The notes under the pieces were generated by a model, which was not told where the DNA came from, did not search any database, and saw only the letters and a list, made by a program, of their open reading frames with translations. From Candidatus Iainarchaeum sp. (GTDB lineage: Archaea; Iainarchaeota; Iainarchaeia; Iainarchaeales; GCA-2688035): a stretch of 9,189 nt of DNA. Position 1 is the first letter of the stretch; every line of letters starts with the position of its first letter. Shown in pieces: positions 1 to 9,189 of the stretch. The position numbers and the translations under genes are program-made. The DNA is taken from assembly GCA_028713935.1 (NCBI GenBank), contig JAQTNI010000047.1, positions 1 to 9,189 of the forward strand. Direction: 5' to 3'.

Positions 1-447
1 AGGAGTGTTTTCCTGTATTGTCGGCATTGCTTCTTCCATTGCCATTGAAACTTTTGCCTTTCCCAGATGCACAGAATCCTGTATTTTGCCCAACCTTGCA
101 AGGATTCCTTTTTCAGTGAGAGTGCCAAGGCAGCTGCCATGCTCTATTACTGGAAGCTGGGAAATCCCTTTTTTTTCCATTAACAAAATAGCCTGCCTTA
201 TTGATTCCCTTGGAGAAGCGCTGTAAACATGCCTTCTCATTATGCTTCCTGCATTTGTCCCGCTTTCCTCATGAAGCCTGTCAAGGCAGTCAAACAATTG
301 CTTTACCTTTTCAAAGCCGGGAGAAATTTTTCCTGACTCGATTTTTGCAATCAGGCTCTGGCTCACGCCTGACAATTTTGAAAGCCCCTGCTGAGTAATG
401 CCAGCTGCTGTGCGCCTTATTTTTATTTCTGAAATGCTTGGAAGCAT
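1..447 (-). CDS. XRE-type helix-turn-helix transcriptional regulator with C-terminal CBS pair (COG3620-like); its 3' end runs off the left edge of the window
   Basis: This gene is not in the supplied ORF track because no stop codon lies inside the window. I translated the reverse strand by hand from the ATG at 447-445. It is open for all 149 codons down to position 1, and an in-frame stop lies just upstream at 456-454. Translation: [149 protein letters not shown]. Residues about 10-55 look like an HTH_3/XRE motif ([25 protein letters not shown]). A CBS motif follows ([22 protein letters not shown]), then the start of a second one. The track ORFs 5..226 and 201..398 are its antisense shadows. 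Confidence 0.8.
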
Positions 448-470
448 ACAAGATTACCTTGCCGGAAGAA

Positions 471-478
471 TTTAAATT
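471..478 (-). promoter_or_regulatory. Candidate archaeal TATA box (TTTAAATT) for the HTH-CBS regulator gene
   Basis: The A/T octamer is centred about 27 nt upstream of the ATG at 447, with no SD-like sequence in between. That spacing fits a leaderless archaeal mRNA. The same octamer recurs at 2756-2763 at the same spacing from another start codon. Confidence 0.4.
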
Positions 479-479
479 G

Positions 480-497
480 TTATTCCTATAGGAATAA
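480..497. promoter_or_regulatory. Perfect 18-bp palindrome TTATTCCTA/TAGGAATAA; candidate operator for a dimeric HTH protein
   Basis: I checked it base by base: 480-488 is the exact reverse complement of 489-497. It lies in the divergent intergenic region between the regulator (start 447) and metK (start 637). It directly abuts the upstream (BRE) side of the regulator's putative TATA box. The palindrome itself is certain; its operator function is inference. Confidence 0.5.
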
Positions 498-584
498 TTT
501 TTGCAAAAACAATTCCTTAAAAAGGCTTTTTTTAAACCTAATAATAAAACTAATTAAGGAAGAATTCTTTTGCATGGCAAAAGA

Positions 585-634
585 TTTCTTTCCCAAGGCT
601 TTCTTTTTAAAAGAAAGGCTTATGGGGGGAGATA
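585..634 (+). promoter_or_regulatory. metK 5' leader stem-loop able to sequester the Shine-Dalgarno sequence
   Basis: Hand-folded structure. The inner helix pairs 599-606 (CUUUCUUU) with 610-617 (AAAGAAAG) and extends through 595-597/619-621. The basal helix pairs 587-594 (UCUUUCCC) with 625-632 (GGGGGAGA), including two G-U pairs. The SD GGGGGGAG (624-631) is almost entirely on the 3' strand of the basal helix, and the ATG is at 637. No energy calculation was possible. Confidence 0.35.
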
Positions 635-636
635 CT

Positions 637-1800
637 ATGAGGAGCGGAAAATATTTTTTCACTTCGGAAGCAATGACAGAAGGCCATCCAGACAAGGTCT
701 GCGACCAGATTTCTGACGCAGTGCTGGATGCAATTTACAAGGACGACCCGAATGCAAGGGTAGGATGCGAAGTAATGGCAGGAATGGGCTTCATAATTGT
801 CACAGGAGAAATCACTACAAAAACTTATATTGACGTGCCGAAGATTGCGAGAAACGTAATCAAGGAAGTAGGCTATTCAAAGCCCGAATATGGCTTTGAT
901 TACCACACAGTTGGTGTGCTGAGCGCAATTAACGAGCAAAGCGCTGACATTTCAATGGGAGTAACAAAAAAAACCCCAAAAGAAGTCGGGGCAGGAGACC
1001 AGGGAATGATGTCAGGCTATGCGACAAATGAAACACCGGAATTAATGCCGATGCCGATTCTTTATGCGCACAGGCTTGCAAAAAAATTAAGTGAAGTCAG
1101 GAGAAACGGAACACTGGCTTATTTAAGGCCTGATGGAAAAACCCAGATTACAGTGGAATATGACAAAGACAAGCCGATAAGGTTTGATGCCGTAGTAATT
1201 GCGGCACAGCACGACCCGGATGTGGAAATTGAAAAGCTGAGGGAAGACATAAAGGAAAAAGTCATAAAGCCTGTCTGCGGAAAATGGGTTGACGCGAACA
1301 CAAAATATTACATCAACAACACTGGAAGATTTGTTATTGGCGGCCCAGTAGCTGATTCAGGCTGTACCGGAAGAAAAATAATCCAGGACACTTATGGAGG
1401 AGTAGGAAACCATGGCGGGGGGGCATTTTCAGGAAAAGACCCTTCAAAGGTTGACAGAAGCGCTGCCTATTACGCAAGGTATGTTGCAAAAAACATTGTT
1501 GCGGCAGGCCTGGCAGACAGGGCAGAAGTGCAGCTTGCTTATGCAATCGGCGCTGTTGGCCCCACAAATGTTTTCATTGACACTCATGGGACAAACAAGG
1601 TTGACGCCCAGAAAATTCATGCAGCGGTAATGAAGACATTCCATTTTTCTCCGGGAGAAATAATTGAGGAACTGCAATTGAGAAGGCCTATTTTCAGGAA
1701 AACAACTGTTTTTGGCCACTTTGGCAGGAACGAGCCAGAATTTCTCTGGGAAAAAACAGACAAAGCTGAAATCCTGAAAAACGAATGCGGGCTGAAATAA
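637..1800 (+). CDS. metK: S-adenosylmethionine synthetase (methionine adenosyltransferase), bacterial/eukaryotic MetK type
   Basis: This is track ORF 574..1800. It carries the canonical MetK motifs [35 protein letters not shown] and [19 protein letters not shown]. Bacterial MetK N-termini (M...LFTSESV.EGHPDK) favour the ATG at 637 ([20 protein letters not shown]). That ATG is preceded by GGGGGGAG (624-631), with 5 nt between the motif and the ATG. The in-frame ATGs at 574 and 622 would add atypical 21-aa and 5-aa extensions. Confidence 0.95.
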
Positions 1801-1819
1801 GCCCCCTTTTTCTATTTTT

Positions 1820-2773
1820 TCAGGCTATAAAGCCCAGTGCAATGGTTGCACAGAGCGCAATTGCTGCACCAGCATACTGGTGCAGAAAAATCTTTTCCTT
1901 GTTAAGCCAGACTCCGAGGAAAAGCGCAAGCACCACATAGCTTTCTGTTATTGCAACTGCAATTGCAAGCTCGTTTTCCAGCACTGCAAAGGCAAAAAAC
2001 AGCCATGCAAGGGTATCGCAAATGCCCATTGCAAGGATAACGGCTGAAAATTTTTTTGCGTTTTCAAAAAATTTTGGCAGGCCTTCCCTGCGCCAAATCA
2101 GGGCAATTGAGATTATTGTAAAAATAACCCAGGGAAACCAAACCGCAAGCAGGGGAGAAACCTGCTTTGAACCTACGGCAGTCAAAAAATTTACAACTGA
2201 CATTCCGATTGCAGCGAGAAAGGCGAGAAAAACCCCTTTTTCAAGGCCTTTGAAAGGATTTTGTTTTGAAAGAGACCGCAATGAAATCAGGACAATTCCG
2301 GCAAAAATCAGGAGAATTATTATCAATTGCAGAACTGAAAGTGTTTCCCTGAAAAACATGAAGCCAAAAACAATTGTGATTGGCAGTTCAAGGCCGAGGA
2401 CAACGTCAACAACTGACAATTTTCCTTTTTTCAATGCTTCAAGGTCTGTTATTGCAAAGGCAAATGTTATCAGGCCAATCATTCCAAGCATTGCAAGGTT
2501 TGGAATTGAAAAAAGCAATGGCAAATCCTGGATTACAAATGGCAGCAGGCCAAAAGAGCCGATCAGGCCAATGAATGCGAGCGATTCAATATCGCCGAAT
2601 TTTCTTGTGCTGCGCTGGATAAAAAAATCCCCAAAGCCCCAGCAAAGCATTGCTCCGAAAGCAAAAAGAATTCCAAGTTCAAAAGCCATGCGAAGAATAA
2701 GGAATAAAGAAATATAAATAAATGCCGAAATCATTGCCGGTTGGCTTGCAAAGGGTTTAAATTTTTTTCCCAT
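1820..2773 (-). CDS. EamA/DMT-superfamily transporter (about 10 TM); start codon uncertain (2773, 2734 or 2689)
   Basis: This is a 317-aa track ORF, almost entirely hydrophobic helices in two similar halves. It has an EamA-like first helix (GILFAFGAMLCWGFGDFFIQR). Typical EamA proteins begin a few residues before that helix, which favours Met29 (ATG at 2689, MAFELG...). A TATA-like TTTATATT (2718-2711 on the minus strand) is centred about 26 nt upstream of that ATG. The longest ORF would leave only 12 bp to the divergent marC-family start. Confidence 0.85.
   Translation of the reverse strand: MGKKFKPFASQPAMISAFIYISLFLILRMAFELGILFAFGAMLCWGFGDFFIQRSTRKFGDIESLAFIGLIGSFGLLPFVIQDLPLLFSIPNLAMLGMIGLITFAFAITDLEALKKGKLSVVDVVLGLELPITIVFGFMFFRETLSVLQLIIILLIFAGIVLISLRSLSKQNPFKGLEKGVFLAFLAAIGMSVVNFLTAVGSKQVSPLLAVWFPWVIFTIISIALIWRREGLPKFFENAKKFSAVILAMGICDTLAWLFFAFAVLENELAIAVAITESYVVLALFLGVWLNKEKIFLHQYAGAAIALCATIALGFIA
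2756..2763. promoter_or_regulatory. Candidate TATA box TTTAAATT in the divergent EamA/MarC intergenic region
   Basis: It is centred about 26-27 nt upstream of the MarC-family ATG at 2786, with no SD in between, which suggests a leaderless mRNA. On the other strand it is also about 25 nt from the EamA-frame ATG at 2734. The core TTTAAA is itself palindromic. Confidence 0.4.
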
Positions 2774-2785
2774 TTTCTCTAGTTC

Positions 2786-3421
2786 ATGATAGATCTTGGC
2801 TTTTTTGCGCTGGTTTTCAGCTCTGTTTTCTTGGTGATTGACCCTTTTGCCAATATTCCTGTTTTCCAGCTGTTTCTGGAAAAATTTTCCGCAAAAGACA
2901 AGGCAAGGACAATAAGGAAAAGCTGCATTATTGCATTCGGGGCTTTTTTCCTGTTCAGCTTTGTAGGGCCGTTCCTTTTTTCATGGATGGGCATAGAATT
3001 TTTTTCATTCAGGGTTGCGGGGGGAATATTATTGCTGATTATTGCCGCAGAAATGCTTTTAGGTTTCAAGACAAGGACAGAACTGACATCATCGGAACAG
3101 GAACAGGCAGAAGAAAAGGAAAACCTGACAGTAACTCCGCTTGCGATTCCGCTGATTACTGGGCCTGGCGCGATTACAACCGGAATTGTGCTTTTTTCAA
3201 AGGCACAGGCGGCCTGGGACATAATTGCCTTTATTGGAGCAGGCACTCTGGCTTTTGTTGCCTGCTATGCATTGCTTTCCCAGTCAGGCAGAATTTCAAA
3301 GTTTTTAAGCCCAATTGGAATGAAAATTATTACGCGAATAATGGGCCTGCTGCTGATGTCGCTTGCAGTGCAGTTCATTCTCACTGGGCTGAAAGAGTCA
3401 GGATTGTTCCTGCTGGCTTAA
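2786..3421 (+). CDS. MarC family (UPF0056) integral membrane protein
   Basis: This is a 211-aa track ORF with a 6-TM profile and family-typical motifs: VIDPFANIPVF near the N-terminus, RVAGGILLLIIAAEML, and TPLAIPLITGPGAITT. Confidence 0.9.
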   Translation: MIDLGFFALVFSSVFLVIDPFANIPVFQLFLEKFSAKDKARTIRKSCIIAFGAFFLFSFVGPFLFSWMGIEFFSFRVAGGILLLIIAAEMLLGFKTRTELTSSEQEQAEEKENLTVTPLAIPLITGPGAITTGIVLFSKAQAAWDIIAFIGAGTLAFVACYALLSQSGRISKFLSPIGMKIITRIMGLLLMSLAVQFILTGLKESGLFLLA

Positions 3422-3442
3422 GGCAAAAGCTTTTTCCATAGA

Positions 3443-3450
3443 TTTATAAA
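3443..3450 (+). promoter_or_regulatory. Candidate TATA box TTTATAAA upstream of the PHP gene
   Basis: It is centred about 27 nt upstream of the ATG at 3473. The intervening sequence (aacttaaattctttttttatta) has no SD, which is consistent with a leaderless first gene of the PHP / tRNA-binding-protein operon. Confidence 0.4.
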
Positions 3451-3472
3451 AACTTAAATTCTTTTTTTATTA

Positions 3473-4153
3473 ATGAAAATGAAAATTGACATGCATGTGC
3501 ATTCGCAATACAGCATTGACGGCCTGTCAAGGCCTGAAGAACTGCTTGAAAAGGCAAAAGCAAAGGGAATTGGCTTTGCAATTACAGAGCATAACAATTG
3601 CGATTCCTGGAAAAAATTTTCCGAACTGAACAGGAAATTCAATGTCCCTCTTATTTTTGGCGAGGAAAAAAAGCTTTACATTGACGGAAAATTAATTGGG
3701 GAAATTTTGTTTTATTTTCTGCAAAGCCCTGTAAAATCAAGAGAATTGTTTGAGGCAATTGACGAGGGAAAAAAACAGGACGCAATTTTGTCAGTGGCGC
3801 ATCCATTTGATTTTCTCAGAAAGCCTGTCTTGTTCGGCTTTCGGAAGCTTGAAGAAGTAAAAACAAAAGTTGATGCAATAGAGGCCTTCAATGCAAGGAT
3901 TTATTTTAAGGGACTGAACAAAAAAGCGGAAAAATTTGCATTAAAAAACAACCTTGCTTTTACAGCGGGAAGCGATGCCCATATTCCAAAAGAGCTTGGA
4001 AATGCATACGCCTTCTGCGAAGCAGGCAACCTTGAAGAATTCAAGAAATGCCTAAAGCAAAAACAAACCAAGGTTGAAGGAAAACTCGCGGGATTGCTTG
4101 TTCATCTGCCGTCAACATTAAAACAATTTGGGATCATAAAAATAAAAAGGTGA
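3473..4153 (+). CDS. PHP-domain metal-dependent phosphoesterase
   Basis: This is a 226-aa track ORF. The PHP metal-ligand motifs appear in the expected order: DMHVHSQYSIDG at the N-terminus, ITEHN, VAHPF, and TAGSDAHIPKELG near the C-terminus. Confidence 0.85.
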   Translation: MKMKIDMHVHSQYSIDGLSRPEELLEKAKAKGIGFAITEHNNCDSWKKFSELNRKFNVPLIFGEEKKLYIDGKLIGEILFYFLQSPVKSRELFEAIDEGKKQDAILSVAHPFDFLRKPVLFGFRKLEEVKTKVDAIEAFNARIYFKGLNKKAEKFALKNNLAFTAGSDAHIPKELGNAYAFCEAGNLEEFKKCLKQKQTKVEGKLAGLLVHLPSTLKQFGIIKIKR

Positions 4154-4158
4154 ATAAA

Positions 4159-4485
4159 ATGGTTTCTTACAATGATTTTTCAAAAATTGATTTGAGAATA
4201 GCAAAAATAATTTCCGCAGAAGACATTGCAGGAAAAGACAAATTGTACAAATTGACAATTGAAATCGGCGAAGAAAAGCCCCGCACACTTGTGGCAGGAT
4301 TAAAGCCTTTTTACACAAAAGAGCAATTGCAGGGAAAACAAATTGTTGTAGTTGCAAACTTAGACCCAAAGCCATTGGGCGGCCTGGTTAGCCAGGGAAT
4401 GCTGCTTGCGGTTAAAAACAAAAAAGCCACTTATTCTGTATTAATGCCGGATTCTGAAGCAGAACCAGGGGCAAGGGTTGAGTAA
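4159..4485 (+). CDS. Stand-alone tRNA-binding domain protein (Trbp111/CsaA/EMAP-II-like OB fold)
   Basis: The track ORF starts at the GTG at 4150. I prefer the ATG at 4159, which is preceded by AGGTGA (4148-4153) with 5 nt between the motif and the ATG. The sequence FSKIDLRIAKIISAEDIAGKDKLYKLTIEIGEE..RTLVAGLKPFYTKEQLQGKQIVVVANLDPKPLGGLVSQGMLLA matches the pattern of the C-terminal tRNA-binding domain of MetRS/Trbp111. The PHP stop TGA (4151-4153) lies inside this gene's SD. Confidence 0.85.
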   Translation: MVSYNDFSKIDLRIAKIISAEDIAGKDKLYKLTIEIGEEKPRTLVAGLKPFYTKEQLQGKQIVVVANLDPKPLGGLVSQGMLLAVKNKKATYSVLMPDSEAEPGARVE

Positions 4486-5117
4486 GAAATTTCATTCAAC
4501 TGTTCCTTGTGCTCAATAAAATGCATTAGTACATCCGCAGCTGTTTTGAGCAAAAGGAAAAAAACCATTACAATTATGCTGGCATTTCCAAAAAAAATTC
4601 CGCCCAAAAAAAGTGTCAGGTGCATTGGGATTATTCTTGCATATGGATAGAACATTATCTTGCCGATGTTTTCCTTTGGCTTTTGCCTGTTCAGATAAAA
4701 TAAAAAAGAAACCAAATGGGTAATGAAAAAAAGAATGGCTCCGCCAATAATAAAATCTATTTCTGCCGCTAATGACTGGGCAGCAGTGAGCGTGAAAGCC
4801 AACAAAAAAATCGCGTAAATAAAATGGAAAAAACCATAATGAACAGCAAAAAAAATGGCAGTGCTTATTTTTGTGGCCTGGGTTGGCTTTGGCTGCCTGC
4901 CATTTACACTGAATCCTTCCGTAGAAAAATCTTTTAATGCCAGAATCCTAAAAAAATTAAAAAATCCTATAGTTACGCTCTGGCACCAATAAATCCATAA
5001 AACCGTAATGAAACTCCATTGGTAATAAACAGCAAAGATTATTGTAGCAAGATTTGCAAAAATAAGGAATAATGTTGACGGTGCTTTTATGAAACTGCCC
5101 ATAATAGCAGAAGGCAT
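4431..5117 (-). CDS. Multi-pass membrane protein of unknown function (resembles the DUF6498 family, from memory)
   Basis: The track ORF is 4431..5120 with a TTG start; the ATG one codon later, at 5117, is preferred. It has about 6 hydrophobic helices. The N-terminal pattern ANL..I....W....VLWIYWCQSVTIGFFNFFRIL and the C-terminal LLKTAADVLMHFIEHKE are what I recall for DUF6498-type proteins. This family assignment is unverified. Confidence 0.7.
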   Translation of the reverse strand: MPSAIMGSFIKAPSTLFLIFANLATIIFAVYYQWSFITVLWIYWCQSVTIGFFNFFRILALKDFSTEGFSVNGRQPKPTQATKISTAIFFAVHYGFFHFIYAIFLLAFTLTAAQSLAAEIDFIIGGAILFFITHLVSFLFYLNRQKPKENIGKIMFYPYARIIPMHLTLFLGGIFFGNASIIVMVFFLLLKTAADVLMHFIEHKEQLNEISYSTLAPGSASESGINTE

Positions 5118-5168
5118 CAAAAGAATTTAAAACTTCCTGAAAAATAAAATCGATGCCTTTATCCGTGC

Positions 5169-6323
5169 TCAAATTCCCAGAAGCGCAAGCAGATAGGGAA
5201 AAGCGATTATTACTCCTATTGTGCTTCCGATGTTTGTGTAGGCTGCCACCATTAACAGATGTGTTACCCTGTTTTTTTCCCAGTCACTGTAAGAATTCAG
5301 CTTGCTCAAAGATTCAAAGTCCTTTACTTTTGGATTCCTGAATTTCATTTCAACGCCTGCTGCAAACCAGCCGGAAGCAAGCGCTGGATGCAGAGTAGTG
5401 AAAGGCGCTGCAACAAAAGCAGTTAAAATTGACAAAGCGTGGGAACGCGCAATCAGCGCCCCGATTGCAGAGCAAATTCCAGTAATCAAAAACCACCACA
5501 AAAAAACATTGGCAGTTGCCTCGATTCCTTTTGCAAAAAAGGCATATGCAATGAAAACAACAAACAAAGCAGGAATTACATATTTTAAAATTGAAAAAAT
5601 GCTTCTCTTTTTTTTCACAATTGTCAATTCACGTATGTCTCTTTTTTTGTCAAGGAATTTTTTCACTCCTTCCAAATGCCCCAAGCCCAGGACAGCAACA
5701 ATTTTTTTTCCTGGGGCATTTAAAATCTGGTTTGCAATGAACAAATCCCTTTCATCAACAAGAGTTTTTTTTAAGGAGGGAAATTCTTTGCTTAATTCTG
5801 ACATTAATTTGTTCAGGATGTCTGTTTTTTTCAGTTCCTCGACTTTTTCCTTTGTCAGCGCCTCTCCTTCCTGAAAAAAACCGGTTACTACCTGCATCAA
5901 AAGCTTTGCCTTTTCAACAATGCCAGTGTTCTGGAAAGCCCTTTTCATTGTAATCTGGATATCCCTGTCAAGCAAGGCAATCGGGATTTTTTTTTCTTCA
6001 GCAAGCCTCATAGCCTCAAGCATTTCAGTGCCTGGAGCAATTCCAAGCTCATCTCCCAGCCTTCTTTGCAGGTTTGAAAGCAAAAGATTAATCAAAAACA
6101 AATAAACCTTTCCTTCCTTGATAACCTGCCCAATGTTCATTTCCTGCCAGCGCCTCCCCATTTTCAATTGCGCATATCTCTGGGCATCAAGCTCCACCCC
6201 TACAATTTCAGGCTTTTCCTTTTCAATTGTTTTATTGACAAGCTCAATTGATTCCTTGCTTATATGGGCAGTGCCAACAAGCACAATTGTTTTCTCCTTA
6301 TTCTTGATTTTTTCAACTGTCAT
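5169..6323 (-). CDS. TraB family protein (TraB/PrgY/GumN/Tiki superfamily, COG1916) with C-terminal membrane domain
   Basis: The track ORF is 5169..6353 with a TTG start. I prefer the ATG at 6323 (MTVEKIKNKEKTIVLVGTAHIS), which is preceded by GGTGA (6332-6328) with a 4-nt spacer. It carries the GTxH motif (VGTAHIS) plus ELD, DERD and GLGH motifs, followed by about 4 TM helices, as in archaeal TraB proteins. Confidence 0.9.
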   Translation of the reverse strand: MTVEKIKNKEKTIVLVGTAHISKESIELVNKTIEKEKPEIVGVELDAQRYAQLKMGRRWQEMNIGQVIKEGKVYLFLINLLLSNLQRRLGDELGIAPGTEMLEAMRLAEEKKIPIALLDRDIQITMKRAFQNTGIVEKAKLLMQVVTGFFQEGEALTKEKVEELKKTDILNKLMSELSKEFPSLKKTLVDERDLFIANQILNAPGKKIVAVLGLGHLEGVKKFLDKKRDIRELTIVKKKRSIFSILKYVIPALFVVFIAYAFFAKGIEATANVFLWWFLITGICSAIGALIARSHALSILTAFVAAPFTTLHPALASGWFAAGVEMKFRNPKVKDFESLSKLNSYSDWEKNRVTHLLMVAAYTNIGSTIGVIIAFPYLLALLGI

Positions 6324-6327
6324 TTTT

Positions 6328-6834
6328 TCACCGTATTTGTTTCTTTTTTGCAAAAATTTTTTGTGCCAAAAGCATAATCAAAAAGCTGAAAAGCAGGCCA
6401 AAGCCCGCTTCTCCAATCAAGGCGCCTGTTTTTTGTTCAAGGCTGCCAATTGGAACAGCATTAACCGCAAAAATAAAAATTGGGATCAAGTTTTTAATCA
6501 CAATTTCAATTGTCAAAGTATAGGCTGTGCCTGAAAATGGCCAGAGCAATGCCATTGGGCCGCCAATATCAAGCAAAAAATGCGAAGCAAGGTAAAAAGC
6601 GCTTATTCCAAGAATTGTTTTTGTTTCAGGAATTTTTTTCAGCCTGCAAACAACAAAAATTATTGCAAGGATTGCGAGCGCAACAAAAATTGAGTGAAAG
6701 CCGCGCCTGAAATTAAGCACAGTGCCAATGTCAAGAATAACTGTTAAAGGCAATAACAGGAAAACCCATTTGCTCCTTAAGCCGAAAAGCGCAAGCAGGC
6801 CAAGAGGAACAAGAATGTGGAAAATCCAGTCCAA
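6328..6834 (-). CDS. Membrane-bound metal-dependent hydrolase-like protein (DUF457 / YdjM-YbcI family-like)
   Basis: This is a 168-aa track ORF with a TTG start at 6834. The start is preceded by AGGTG (6845-6841) and a 6-nt T spacer. It is a hydrophobic protein with spaced His/Asp motifs reminiscent of DUF457: HILVPLG at the N-terminus, LDIG, RRGFHS, SHFLLD, LLWPFS. The family call is by eye only. Confidence 0.7.
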   Translation of the reverse strand: MDWIFHILVPLGLLALFGLRSKWVFLLLPLTVILDIGTVLNFRRGFHSIFVALAILAIIFVVCRLKKIPETKTILGISAFYLASHFLLDIGGPMALLWPFSGTAYTLTIEIVIKNLIPIFIFAVNAVPIGSLEQKTGALIGEAGFGLLFSFLIMLLAQKIFAKKKQIR

Positions 6835-6869
6835 AAAAACACCTAAATTGCTAAAAAAACCAAAGGGTT

Positions 6870-6885
6870 AATTATAAAAATAATT
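6870..6885 (-). promoter_or_regulatory. Candidate TATA element inside a small palindrome (AATTAT-AAAA-ATAATT) for the minus-strand membrane operon
   Basis: The A/T-rich palindrome lies about 43 nt upstream of the TTG start at 6834. That spacing would give a short leader carrying the AGGTG SD. The call is weak because the whole spacer is AT-rich. Confidence 0.3.
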
Positions 6886-6908
6886 GCTTGTTTTTGTTTT
6901 AAACTGCC

Positions 6909-6958
6909 TTTTCTTTCTTTGAAAAAGAAAGAAAATGTAAGTTGCCAAAAGAAAGAAA
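6909..6958. repeat. Perfect 12-bp inverted repeat TTTTCTTTCTTT-gaa-AAAGAAAGAAAA plus a third purine copy (AAAAGAAAGAAA) 12 nt downstream
   Basis: Checked base by base: 6909-6920 is the exact reverse complement of 6924-6935, with a 3-nt spacer. The purine arm is repeated directly at 6947-6958. A further 7-bp inverted repeat (CCAAAAG at 6945-6951, CTTTTGG at 6966-6972) overlaps the third copy. The element lies between the two divergent putative promoters. Confidence 0.6.
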
Positions 6959-6992
6959 TCACGGCCTTTTGGTAAATAATATGTTCTTTGAA

Positions 6993-7004
6993 TTATTATA
7001 AAAA
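6993..7004 (+). promoter_or_regulatory. Candidate TATA box (TTATTATAAAAA) for the trm112-orphan-CYTH operon
   Basis: The A/T-rich box lies about 31-42 nt upstream of the ATG at 7035, and a GGTG (7026-7029) has 5 nt between it and the ATG. This is consistent with a short-leader transcript. Confidence 0.35.
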
Positions 7005-7034
7005 GCCATTGCAGCTAATCTTTTCGGTGTGCGA

Positions 7035-7205
7035 ATGGAATTAAACAAAAAACTGCTTGAAATAATTGCCTGCCCAAAATGCAAGGGCACTCCTTTTTAC
7101 AACAAAAAAGAAAACAAGCTGGTCTGCAAAAAATGCAAACTGGCTTACAAGATAGAAAACAATATTCCAATAATGCTGGTTGAAAAAGCCGAGAAAACAA
7201 AGTGA
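7035..7205 (+). CDS. trm112: Trm112 family protein (UPF0434; zinc-ribbon activator subunit of SAM-dependent methyltransferases)
   Basis: This 56-aa ORF falls below the track's length cut-off and was found by hand: MELNKKLLEIIACPKCKGTPFYNKKENKLVCKKCKLAYKIENNIPIMLVEKAEKTK, with a TGA stop at 7203-7205. It matches the Trm112/YcaR signature: LLEILACP.CKG.L.......L.C..C...Y.I.dGIP.ML..EA, with four Cys (CPKC...CKKC). The track shows only a spurious antisense ORF here (7015..7221). Confidence 0.85.
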   Translation: MELNKKLLEIIACPKCKGTPFYNKKENKLVCKKCKLAYKIENNIPIMLVEKAEKTK

Positions 7206-7214
7206 GTGTTTCGA

Positions 7215-7811
7215 ATGGCAAGTAAACGCACCTTAGAAAAATTGTTCAGCGGAAGAAAACCAAAAAGCCTTTGGGGCGGAGCAGGAAAAGCTGAGCGCGC
7301 AAAATACAAAAGCAGGCGAGGACAGGTTTCTGGCGGGCGCAGCGGATTAAGCCTTAAAAGAGTTTACCAAGAACTCGTGCAAATATCAAAATTGCCTGGG
7401 CCAAAGGGGTTAGCAATGGAAAATTATTATTTGAAAACATTTTGCAGCAAGGGAACTCAAAAGATGATGGCAAATTTTTTTCCATTTGGTGAAATAAGCG
7501 GAGTCCAAAATTTCCAAACAACCTCGAACAGAATCCGAAAAACACTGCTGAATTATTCTTCGGGAAATAGCCCCAAGTTGCATTCGCTTCTTCAGGCTGT
7601 TGAAGTGGCAATCAAAGATGTAGAAGGAAGTTCAAAAAAAATCAGTCAAATTGCACTCAATAGTAATATCCAGAAAAGTGATTTTGGCAAAGCAGCAGAG
7701 GTACGGCACACATTTGAAAATAGGACTGAGTTTACCTCCTCTTGTCTTATCCTCTTGAAAACAAGCATTACAAACCGTTTAGGCGAATTGGATCAAAAAC
7801 AAGAAAGGTGA
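7215..7811 (+). CDS. Hypothetical protein with a strongly basic, Gly/Ser/Arg/Lys-rich N-terminal ~50 aa; no family recognised
   Basis: The track ORF is 7206..7811 with a GTG start; the ATG at 7215 is preferred. An open frame of about 200 codons in AT-rich DNA is unlikely to arise by chance. Its TGA stop (7809-7811) is embedded in the AAGGTGA SD of the downstream CYTH gene, and it starts 10 nt after the trm112 stop. I see no recognisable motifs. Confidence 0.65.
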   Translation: MASKRTLEKLFSGRKPKSLWGGAGKAERAKYKSRRGQVSGGRSGLSLKRVYQELVQISKLPGPKGLAMENYYLKTFCSKGTQKMMANFFPFGEISGVQNFQTTSNRIRKTLLNYSSGNSPKLHSLLQAVEVAIKDVEGSSKKISQIALNSNIQKSDFGKAAEVRHTFENRTEFTSSCLILLKTSITNRLGELDQKQER

Positions 7812-7818
7812 TTTTTTT

Positions 7819-8352
7819 ATGAACGAAGTTGAGCTTAAAATTCTGGAAATTAGCATTCCTGCAGTTGAAAAAAAGCTCAGGAAGCTGCATGCAAAAAAAA
7901 TTTTTTCGGGAATCCTGGAAACAAGCTATTTTGATTTTCCTGGAAACAAGCTGCGCAGAAAAAGCAGGGTGCTGAGGCTAAGGGTAATAGAGGGAAAAAC
8001 CTTCCTGACATTCAAAATGCGCATGCCAGTAAAAAAAGCAGTTTCTTCCGAAGAAACTGAATTTGAAGTGGGAAATTTCAAAAAGGCAAGCCATTTTCTG
8101 CACAGGCTCGGCCTGAAAACAACTTTTTCTTACAGGAAAAAAAGGGTTTCCTACAGGATGAAAAAAGTGCGAATTGAGCTTGAACAATATCTCGGCAAAT
8201 TCAGCAGGATAAAGCCTTTTCTGGAAATAGAAGCACAGAATGAAAAGGATGCATACAATGCAGTTGGGGCACTGGGATTTTCAGAAAAAGATGCAAAGGT
8301 CTGGCATTCCGGGCAATTGTTCAAATATTACAAAATGAAAGTTTTTGAATAA
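7819..8352 (+). CDS. CYTH-domain protein (triphosphate tunnel metalloenzyme; CyaB-like class IV adenylyl cyclase / triphosphatase family)
   Basis: This is a 177-aa track ORF. It has the N-terminal ExExK signature (MNEVELKI), followed by the alternating beta-strand basic/acidic pattern of the tunnel (RLRV, LTFK, ETEFEV, RIELEQ, FLEIEA). The size is typical of single-domain CYTH proteins. The SD AAGGTGA (7805-7811) is separated from the ATG by 7 nt. Confidence 0.85.
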   Translation: MNEVELKILEISIPAVEKKLRKLHAKKIFSGILETSYFDFPGNKLRRKSRVLRLRVIEGKTFLTFKMRMPVKKAVSSEETEFEVGNFKKASHFLHRLGLKTTFSYRKKRVSYRMKKVRIELEQYLGKFSRIKPFLEIEAQNEKDAYNAVGALGFSEKDAKVWHSGQLFKYYKMKVFE

Positions 8353-8354
8353 AA

Positions 8355-8397
8355 AAACTTTTTCGGAGCGCTCACTGCGTTCGCTTCCAAAAAGTTT
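8355..8397. terminator. Imperfect long hairpin between convergent CYTH and pyrG genes; candidate bidirectional terminator
   Basis: 8355-8370 (AAACTTTTTCGGAGCG) pairs with 8382-8397 (CGCTTCCAAAAAGTTT), with one mismatch and one G-U, around an 11-nt loop. It is flanked by A/T runs that read as oligo-T on either strand. It starts 3 nt after the CYTH stop codon. Confidence 0.4.
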
Positions 8398-8444
8398 ACA
8401 AAAAACAGCCATATAATTTTGGATTACAATAAAAAATTGATTAC

Positions 8445-9189
8445 TTATTTTCCGGCGCCTGCTGCTTTCACAAATGCCAGAAACATTTCGTCGGGATGCA
8501 GTGGCCTGCTTGTGAATTCTGGATGAAATTGTGAGGCCATGAAAAATTTGTGCTTTGGCAGTTCCAGAACCTGCATTATTGGCTGGCCAGGCGCTTTTCC
8601 GGAAAAAACAACTCCGCCTTCTTTCTCAAATTTTTCAATGTAATCAGGATTGCATTCAAACCTGTGCCTGAATCTCCTTCGAATTGTTTTTGCATTGCCA
8701 AATATTTTTGAAGCAAAAGTTCCCGGCTTGATTTCAATGTCTTTTCCTCCCAAGCGCATGTTGCCTCCAAGGCCTTCAATCTTTTTTTGCTCGGGAAGAA
8801 TGTCAACAACGGGGTCTTTTGCGTTTGGGGAGAATTCAGTGCTGTTGGCTTCTTTAAGGTTCAGGGCATTGCGCGCAATTTCAATCAATGCAATCTGAAA
8901 ACCAAGGCACAATCCAAGGTAAGGGATATTTTTTTCCCTGCAGTGCTTTGCAACAGAAATTTTTCCTTCAATGCCCCTTGCGCCAAAGCCACCCGGCACA
9001 ATTACCCCGTCAACGCCTTTCAATGCTTCCGCAACTTTGCCGATTTTTTCTATTTCAGTTGTTTCAATCCATTTTACTTCAAAGCATTTTTTGGTTGCAA
9101 AAGAGCAGTGTTCAAGAGCCTTCAAAATGCTGATATAAGTGTCATTGCTTCCAGTGTACTTTCCAGCAATGCCGATTACAATCGGTTTT
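8445..9189 (-). CDS. pyrG: CTP synthase, C-terminal part (end of the synthetase domain plus the glutamine amidotransferase domain); its 5' end runs off the right edge
   Basis: The track ORF 8445..9125 begins at an internal TTG. The same frame stays open to the window edge (hand translation upstream: KPIVIGIAGKYTGSNDTYISILKALEH). It carries the GATase class-I motifs of PyrG: GVIVPGGFGARGIEGKI, YLGLCLGFQ (catalytic Cys), and FMASQFHPEF (His/Glu). Confidence 0.95.
   Translation of the reverse strand, partial: KPIVIGIAGKYTGSNDTYISILKALEHCSFATKKCFEVKWIETTEIEKIGKVAEALKGVDGVIVPGGFGARGIEGKISVAKHCREKNIPYLGLCLGFQIALIEIARNALNLKEANSTEFSPNAKDPVVDILPEQKKIEGLGGNMRLGGKDIEIKPGTFASKIFGNAKTIRRRFRHRFECNPDYIEKFEKEGGVVFSGKAPGQPIMQVLELPKHKFFMASQFHPEFTSRPLHPDEMFLAFVKAAGAGK

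Follow-up and report, generated by a model that had tools for sequence, protein, structure and literature searches.

We analysed a 9,189-nucleotide stretch of DNA from Candidatus Iainarchaeum sp. (contig JAQTNI010000047.1, positions 1 to 9,189; hereafter, the window), at one end of which a gene for a helix-turn-helix (HTH) protein with CBS domains is transcribed divergently from metK, the gene for S-adenosylmethionine (SAM) synthetase. An earlier note on this DNA had described the gene pair and a perfect 18-bp palindrome in the 189-bp spacer between the two genes (448–636), and had proposed that the HTH-CBS protein uses the palindrome to regulate its own gene and to tune metK. The coordinates of the divergent genes and of the palindrome proved to be correct, and Pfam and TIGR01034 support the gene identities (Table 1).

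The minus-strand reading frame of the regulator gene runs without a stop over 149 codons and leaves the window at its edge. Residues 8–56 of the protein match Pfam HTH_3 (E = 3e-11), as expected of an HTH of the XRE/Cro-C1 type, and residues 67–119 match Pfam CBS (E = 6e-11); a second CBS domain lies only partly inside the window. The best database match, P0001 (188 residues, 94% identity), contains both CBS domains complete, and we used it to represent the C-terminus beyond the window edge. By this comparison ~39 C-terminal residues of the regulator lie outside the window, and the protein ends in a Bateman module, with the first CBS domain in the window and the pair complete in P0001. The AlphaFold2 model of P0001 (mean pLDDT 86.5) predicts a helical N-terminal HTH that a long linker helix joins to a canonical Bateman module, and it superposes on CBS pairs with a TM-score of 0.8, normalised to the target (Foldseek). 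Searches of the PDB by sequence, profile and Foldseek matched only stand-alone CBS pairs, and returned no solved structure that spans HTH and CBS together. The family to which the regulator belongs (COG3620-type, ~185 residues) has more than 2,000 cluster representatives and occurs in at least 555 species-level genomes. Its database names are merely "CBS domain-containing protein" or "predicted transcriptional regulator", an NCBIfam scan gave no equivalog for it, and there is no orthologue from a cultured or model organism among the best 120 homologues listed, all of which come from uncultured lineages.

The product of the divergent gene scores 563 bits against TIGR01034, for which the cutoff is 309, and all three MetK domains (PF00438, PF02772 and PF02773) were found in it, identifying it as a MetK of the bacterial type. 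An in-frame ATG at 574, which would add 21 codons, was considered as the start and rejected; the alignment to the family profile starts at residue 7 when translation is counted from 637, and a Shine-Dalgarno-like run, GGGGGGAGAT, precedes that codon, both of which place the start at 637. The run also implies a leadered mRNA. Among the homologous loci described below, the metK of one (L075:2191-4701, minus strand; an archaeal metagenome-assembled genome) is an 836-residue open reading frame with an intein (LAGLIDADG_3 and Intein_splicing) directly after the GGGAF motif of the C-terminal domain, and that of another (L008:3852-4855) aligns as residues 1–138 and 184–386 with a longest open reading frame of 154 residues, which suggests a frameshift, decay or an assembly error.

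Apart from the palindrome TTATTCCTATAGGAATAA, the window has no perfect palindrome whose arms reach 7 nt, and a perfect 18-bp palindrome arises by chance in 0.2% of spacer shuffles and 3% of whole-window block-shuffles. Only 3 nt separate TTATTCCTATAGGAATAA from the TATA-like box TTTAAATT on the regulator side, and from the centre of this box it is ~25–26 nt downstream to the A in the regulator ATG (447); the earlier note had correctly placed this box beside the palindrome, and its figure of 27 nt to the ATG was off by an immaterial 1–2 nt. No Shine-Dalgarno sequence precedes the regulator ATG and, given the position of the box, the regulator transcript is probably leaderless. TTAAAAA(T)-type boxes likewise stand immediately past the palindrome in iainarchaeal relatives. 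On the metK side, the block TTTTTGCAAAAACAATTCCTTAAAAAGGC is invariant in close relatives, and the rest of the spacer diverges. This block contains a putative TATA box for metK, which is abutted by an extra ATTCC half-site of the palindrome (512–516). A second inverted repeat (490–517; AGGAATAATTTTTGCA / TGCAAAAACAATTCCT) shares sequence with the right arm of the palindrome and ends in this half-site, within the same invariant sequence. This repeat could offer a second register or site for binding.

Table 1. Features of the regulator–metK locus, and copies of the palindrome in metagenomic metK loci.
Feature	Position	Strand	Basis
Regulator gene (HTH_3 and CBS pair), 5' 149 codons	447..1	minus	translation, Pfam, homologue P0001
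TATA-like box TTTAAATT, putatively of the regulator's own promoter	476..469	minus	sequence; function inferred from archaeal promoter geometry
Operator, perfect 18-bp palindrome TTATTCCTATAGGAATAA	480..497		one copy of wTATTCyNNNNrGAATAw
Block TTTTTGCAAAAACAATTCCTTAAAAAGGC, putative metK BRE/TATA	498..526	plus	alignment; TTAAAAA at 516-522; promoter function inferred
Two-hairpin module of the metK leader; stems 560-573/577-590 and 595-607/609-621	556..621	plus	palindrome/inverted-repeat search, alignment
Shine-Dalgarno-like GGGGGGAGAT before metK	624..633	plus	sequence; GGAGG at the same position in L002/L004/L006
metK, bacterial-type S-adenosylmethionine synthetase, 387 aa, presumed regulated target	637..1800	plus	TIGR01034, Pfam
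Operator sites at metagenome metK loci (strong ones of 22 bits in L097 and 20 bits in L137)	L097:1266-1283 and 3962-3979; L137:2417-2434		position weight matrix

We assembled a comparative set of 83 loci that encode regulators 39–94% identical to that of the window. Three of these came from exact-protein look-ups and the other 80 from a survey that took one genome from each species and in which at least 555 stretches encode a relative of the regulator. The set spans Iainarchaeota, Micrarchaeota, Aenigmatarchaeota, Nanohalarchaeota, Bathyarchaeia and other Thermoproteota, and Thaumarchaeota. By its relatives, the window itself belongs among DPANN archaea of the Iainarchaeota/Diapherotrites type. 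The genes directly upstream of the regulator were clustered and the groups then confirmed by Pfam. Of the 81 loci that have a neighbour, 58 have a methionine/SAM gene as the divergent gene upstream of the regulator, and these genes fall into four groups: bacterial-type MetK (26 loci beyond the window), archaeal-type SAM synthetase (AdoMet_Synthase, PF01941; 10 loci), MetY-like enzymes of the O-acetylhomoserine sulfhydrylase type (Cys_Met_Meta_PP; 11 loci), and HcyBio (PF01837) proteins with CBS domains (11 loci), which are L-aspartate-semialdehyde sulfurtransferases (L-ASST) of the MJ0100/MA1821 type. The last of these act in homocysteine synthesis (PMC12068725). By tblastn, MetK was found in 28 loci, almost always divergent and with its start 100–200 nt from the regulator, and the remaining genes of the window show little synteny with the regulator (EamA in 2 loci, PHP in 5 and TraB in 8; DUF6498 and CYTH were absent from all). 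Because the neighbours represent four gene groups of one pathway, including two SAM synthetase families that are not homologous, what is shared between the loci is a function or pathway rather than an inherited gene pair. The earlier note had made its proposal depend on conservation of the adjacency in relatives, and in this broader form the linkage is indeed conserved.

Other features recur around the regulator. In Bathyarchaeia, a small second HTH_3 protein (~110–135 residues) follows the regulator in 11 loci (L020, L028, L037, L042, L043, L048, L068, L069, L071, L072 and L077), and a convergent YchF/YGR210-like GTPase gene follows it in 10 (L015, L030, L032, L033, L050, L054, L056, L058, L062 and L064). 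In the close relatives of the window locus (L001–L009) this place is taken by a protein of 182–228 residues without a Pfam domain. Two contigs binned as Candidatus Falkowbacteria and Candidatus Acidoferrum (L016 and L022) carry the regulator, palindrome and metK as a cassette, and are probably mis-binned archaeal contigs.

The palindrome is conserved along with the regulator. We took the best match to the 18-mer of the window in the 300 nt ahead of each regulator gene, and ~75 of the 83 loci share the consensus wTATTCyNNNNrGAATAw, with an invariant TATTC...GAATA core around four variable central positions; variant forms include ATATTCCAAAAAGAATAT in Bathyarchaeia and ATATTCTTATAGGAATAT in Aenigmatarchaeota. 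The earlier note had also staked its proposal on the presence of the palindrome in orthologous spacers, and this expectation was borne out. When 736 kb of sequence was scanned with a position weight matrix (PWM) derived from these sites, 74 of the 91 matches of at least 14 bits were at the position upstream of a regulator, and shuffled sequences gave 2.4 matches. Since the matrix was built from the same sites, we also counted the plain pattern TATTC-N6-GAATA. Of 82 non-redundant loci, 54 have an exact copy no more than 150 nt upstream of the regulator ATG, and in the remaining 707 kb there are just two. The palindrome of the window scores 27.6 bits, and the window contains no second full copy, the next PWM score being 9.2 bits at a site within the CYTH gene. 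The distance from the end of the palindrome to the regulator ATG is most often 24–27 nt, and 32 nt in the window. The putative recognition helix of the HTH, SQSLIAKIE, is present in the window protein and invariant across an alignment of 35 regulators, which matches the invariance of the half-sites. We infer that the regulator binds TATTC-N6-GAATA sequence-specifically, and we refer to the palindrome as its operator.

Copies of the operator are also found at methionine/SAM genes that have no regulator beside them. In L055, a rearrangement has parted metK from the regulator; the metK promoter, which is homologous to those of L032 and L058, keeps a 12.6-bit operator, and the regulator has its own 20.8-bit operator. 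An independent metagenome survey that began from MetK gave two further cases: L097 has a 22-bit operator 68 nt upstream of metK, L137 a 20-bit operator at 51 nt, and neither shows a regulator in the 1.3–2.5 kb surveyed. In L032, a second operator of 22.5 bits lies ~100 nt upstream of metA, which encodes a homoserine O-acyltransferase (HTS, PF04204). In L097, metK is followed by APRT-like and PNP_UDP_1 (MTA-phosphorylase-like, where MTA is methylthioadenosine) genes, the second of which has a weak 16-bit site across its start.

The flanks of the operator point in the same direction. Over 75 loci, the target-side flank contains an AT-rich box at -21 to -15 and a T-T-T-n-T-G element at -12 to -7, with constant spacing to the operator. 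On the strand of the target gene these become C-A-n-A-A-A and, after it, a TATA-like box, an arrangement that resembles a TFB recognition element (BRE) and TATA box facing the target gene. The regulator-side flank over the same 75 loci shows no comparable conserved element besides the half-site. Together with the operators at unlinked metK genes (L055, L097 and L137) and at metA (L032), the fixed BRE/TATA-like element on the target side argues for control of the target genes. The proposal of the earlier note that the protein both autoregulates and tunes metK through the palindrome is therefore well founded in linkage, operator conservation and the unlinked operators; the ligand, the sign of the metK regulation and a universal adjacency to metK do not share this support.

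From these data, we consider it likely that the gene at 447..1 encodes a one-component, autoregulated archaeal regulator of methionine and SAM metabolism that acts through the operator at 480–497. The XRE-type HTH protein with its CBS-pair sensor, presumably as a dimer, would recognise the palindrome, which is flanked by two divergent promoters. Towards its own gene, the operator of the regulator covers the BRE position and is 3 nt from the TATA box, so that the bound protein should exclude TFB and TBP and repress its own gene. The same pair of protein and operator is attached to both types of SAM synthetase and to homocysteine and methionine genes, which suggests that the regulon is the supply of methionine and SAM. 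The most likely effector would be an adenosyl product of this pathway, with SAM the first candidate and S-adenosylhomocysteine (SAH) or MTA next, and the outcome would be a protein-based feedback loop analogous to MetJ or to a SAM riboswitch.

The geometry on the metK side is different. With the putative TATA box at ~516–522, the predicted transcription start is near 546, and the operator would occupy about -45 to -62, ending ~5–6 bp upstream of the BRE/TATA-like element. Archaeal regulators that bind upstream of the BRE and TATA box usually activate, and those that bind over or downstream of these elements repress, as seen for Ptr2, TrmBL1 and SurR. By these position rules, activation of metK by the DNA-bound regulator appears somewhat more likely. 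Repression would also be possible: the gap to the BRE is only ~5–6 bp, so that the bound protein might clash sterically, and the extra ATTCC half-site, which abuts the metK TATA box, might mediate it.

Several observations weigh against a regulator of methionine and SAM supply as we have drawn it. The assignment of activation or repression depends on predicted start sites. About one quarter of the regulator loci have unrelated or unknown neighbours, for example MCM, TiaS, PyrG or a cyclase, and many of the loci come from related Bathyarchaeia, so that the counts are not phylogenetically independent. In a reverse survey that started from MetK and took its 80 best metagenomic relatives, many of which are probably bacterial (55–60% identity), the 11 closest relatives (64–73% identity) mostly lack both the regulator and the operator. 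The adjacency described in the earlier note thus extends beyond close relatives and is not universal, which weakens the case somewhat without undoing it. Finally, the CBS pair of the regulator is generic. Its best relatives in the PDB are uncharacterised CBS proteins together with MJ1225 and AcuB, which bind adenine nucleotides (AMP, ADP, ATP and Ap4A) and rank above MJ0100 and SAM-bound human cystathionine beta-synthase by both sequence and fold; MJ0100 is matched with E = 1e-3 by single sequence and at about rank 30 by profile, and 4UUU (the human enzyme with SAM) is at rank 31 by fold. We found its similarity to known SAM-binding CBS pairs to be no greater than that to other kinds, and the similarity between the CBS pair of the regulator and that of the neighbouring HcyBio proteins is marginal.

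One of these 11 closest relatives in the reverse survey (L084, MetK 72% identical) contains a very divergent HTH_3 and CBS gene (L084:1872-2500; 27% identity) that is also divergent from metK. Its helix reads SQAHIAKIE, and its spacer has ATATATAAATA AT repeats and lacks TATTC-N6-GAATA. This gene may represent a sister family with a different operator.

The loci with unrelated neighbours and the many close MetK relatives without the system would be expected if the palindrome served only the autoregulation of an XRE-type regulator, its real targets being elsewhere or absent and the adjacency to metK being inherited synteny. Autoregulatory palindromes are common in XRE-family proteins, and the distance of the operator to the regulator ATG is indeed tighter than that to the target ATG. 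However, inherited synteny does not account for neighbours from four methionine/SAM families with two non-homologous SAM synthetases in loci where other synteny is not conserved, nor does autoregulation account for operators in front of metK or metA without an adjacent regulator, or for a promoter-like element that faces the target at a fixed distance from the operator. We therefore consider a purely autoregulatory palindrome improbable.

The metK transcript itself could also carry the regulatory element. The predicted leader of ~90 nt contains, in addition to the Shine-Dalgarno sequence, two stable-looking hairpins (560–590 and 595–621), which are kept in L002–L005, and these could form a SAM-responsive RNA that has gone unrecognised and that mainly controls metK, making the palindrome irrelevant for this gene. 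However, Rfam gave no match to a SAM or SAH riboswitch family in 400–700 even at E up to 10, only noise, and the hairpins are missing from L006 and most other metK loci. In agreement with this, the operator is 139–143 nt from metK in the window and L002–L005 and 67–103 nt in most other loci, which makes the operator-to-ATG distance there ~60 nt shorter. A similar module is inserted a second time in L001, related AAAGAAAG-type hairpins lie between the operator and the regulator in L002 and L003, and more of these related hairpins are found at other intergenic places. We thus rejected the hairpins as a riboswitch, as a lineage-specific insertion of ~60 nt that is absent from L006 and most loci, duplicated in L001 and without an Rfam match; the two-hairpin module looks like a small repeated insertion, and control of metK by a leader RNA in place of the palindrome seems very improbable. 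No Rfam family reaches its gathering score anywhere in the window, which agrees with the suggestion of the earlier note that a protein here takes the place of a riboswitch.

Small hairpins of the AAAGAAAG/CTTTCTTT type recur between genes in this lineage (556–621 and 6909–6958 in the window, L001:44-95 and L002:5890-5935), and they may be miniature repeated elements. In L002 (5683-5814), the public gene call stretches metK to 433 residues, over the leader and nearly to the operator, which is likely a start-site mis-annotation that masks the regulatory region.

CBS pairs bind adenosyl ligands. Because the regulon is the supply line of SAM, this makes SAM, or SAH or MTA, the natural candidate for the effector of the proposed methionine/SAM regulator. 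The CBS domain of the L-ASST family, a neighbour of the regulator in 11 loci, is regarded as SAM-regulated (PMC12068725). Assigning the ligand by homology or fold was tried and dropped, as the PDB sequence, profile and Foldseek searches yielded generic CBS pairs only. Judged from its genomic context, the effector has about an even chance of being SAM or a close derivative.

The CBS pair could instead sense energy charge through adenine nucleotides (AMP, ADP or ATP, as in CcpN, AcuB and AMPK-gamma), or it could be a mere dimerisation module, with the protein and the operator otherwise as described. A nucleotide sensor would couple the ATP-consuming synthesis of SAM to the energy charge of the cell and not to product feedback. 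This is an option with some weight, as nucleotide binders such as MJ1225 and AcuB are among the closest solved CBS pairs, MetK uses ATP, and CcpN, a regulator of Bacillus with an HTH and two CBS domains, controls carbon metabolism (PMC7028823). However, the rank of a CBS pair by sequence or fold is a poor predictor of its ligand, and the regulon is specifically that of homocysteine, methionine and SAM synthesis (MetY-like, HcyBio, MetA and both SAM synthetases). An end-product signal fits such a pathway-specific regulon better than general energy charge does, and we thus think nucleotide sensing or simple dimerisation unlikely, if clearly less so than the two explanations rejected above.

Returning to the feedback regulator, a broader form of this proposal would make it a widespread archaeal analogue of MetJ that senses SAM directly, binds a phylum-spanning TATTC-N6-GAATA operator, represses its own gene and controls both types of SAM synthetase together with homocysteine and methionine genes. 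We put this forward only tentatively, at well under even confidence. If true, this would be the first methionine/SAM regulon to be defined in Archaea, and the factor would be their first transcription factor responsive to SAM, doing the work that riboswitches do in bacteria. To our knowledge, there is no characterised archaeal regulator of methionine or SAM metabolism, and we know of very few archaeal transcription factors for which the effector, operator and regulon have all been established. Searches of the openly available full-text literature, which leaves subscription-only papers outside its scope, found no description of this regulon or operator, and the methionine/SAM regulon of the HTH-CBS factor is apparently undescribed so far. 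We rate the combination of domains, operator and regulon in this putative one-component metabolite-sensing regulator as new in Archaea. What is gained is a protein family, an operator of high information content, a coherent candidate regulon (MetK, archaeal-type SAM synthetase, L-ASST, MetY-like and MetA) and a defined promoter geometry. Such a system would reveal how the universal methyl donor is controlled in DPANN archaea and Bathyarchaeia, groups that are hard to grow or have not been cultured. In their genomes, the operator could also serve to annotate methionine- and SAM-related genes, including transporters and salvage enzymes.

Parts of this design are known from other systems. Among archaeal proteins, HhpR of Pyrococcus yayanosii is likewise a CBS-domain regulator, an activator that acts at a site upstream of a promoter (PMC11705074). 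In contrast to the regulator described here, it has four CBS domains and no HTH and responds to hydrostatic pressure, and its target and site are unrelated. Uncharacterised proteins with an HTH and CBS domains do exist in Thermococcaceae (PMC11705074, 2025). In domain architecture, the closest parallel is CcpN of Bacillus subtilis and EF1025, one-component proteins of ~200 residues in which an N-terminal HTH is followed by a CBS pair and which bind promoters (PMC7028823). The resemblance was compared by architecture only. CcpN controls gluconeogenic genes in Firmicutes, with ATP/ADP and pH as its signals; regulon, operator and domain of life all differ, and no CcpN-type family turned up in NCBIfam or Pfam scans of the regulator. 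CBS pairs that bind SAM within sulfur amino-acid metabolism are found in the MJ0100/MA1821-type proteins, the genes of which neighbour the regulator, and in the regulatory domain of human cystathionine beta-synthase; these are allosteric modules attached to enzymes, not transcription factors, and the CBS pair of the regulator is not specifically similar to them.

The task proposed for the regulator, feedback by SAM or SAH on metK and methionine genes, is carried out elsewhere by SAM riboswitches and by regulators of the SahR/SamR type. In Proteobacteria, methionine and SAM metabolism is under the control of MetJ, MetR, SahR and SAM/SAH riboswitches (PMC4239095). SahR belongs to the ArsR type and senses through a methyltransferase-like domain, whereas the sensor here would be a CBS pair, and the window contains no riboswitch. 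The closest functional parallel is MetJ of E. coli, for which SAM is the corepressor. MetJ controls methionine genes and metK through short palindromes, is autoregulated and provides end-product feedback, all of which we predict for the archaeal system. The two proteins are not homologous. MetJ is a bacterial ribbon-helix-helix protein without a separate sensor domain that recognises tandem 8-bp metboxes. The archaeal regulator instead combines an XRE-type HTH (HTH_3) with a CBS pair, and its operator is a single inverted repeat of 16–18 bp set in an archaeal BRE/TATA context. The likeness to MetJ would thus be one of function only.

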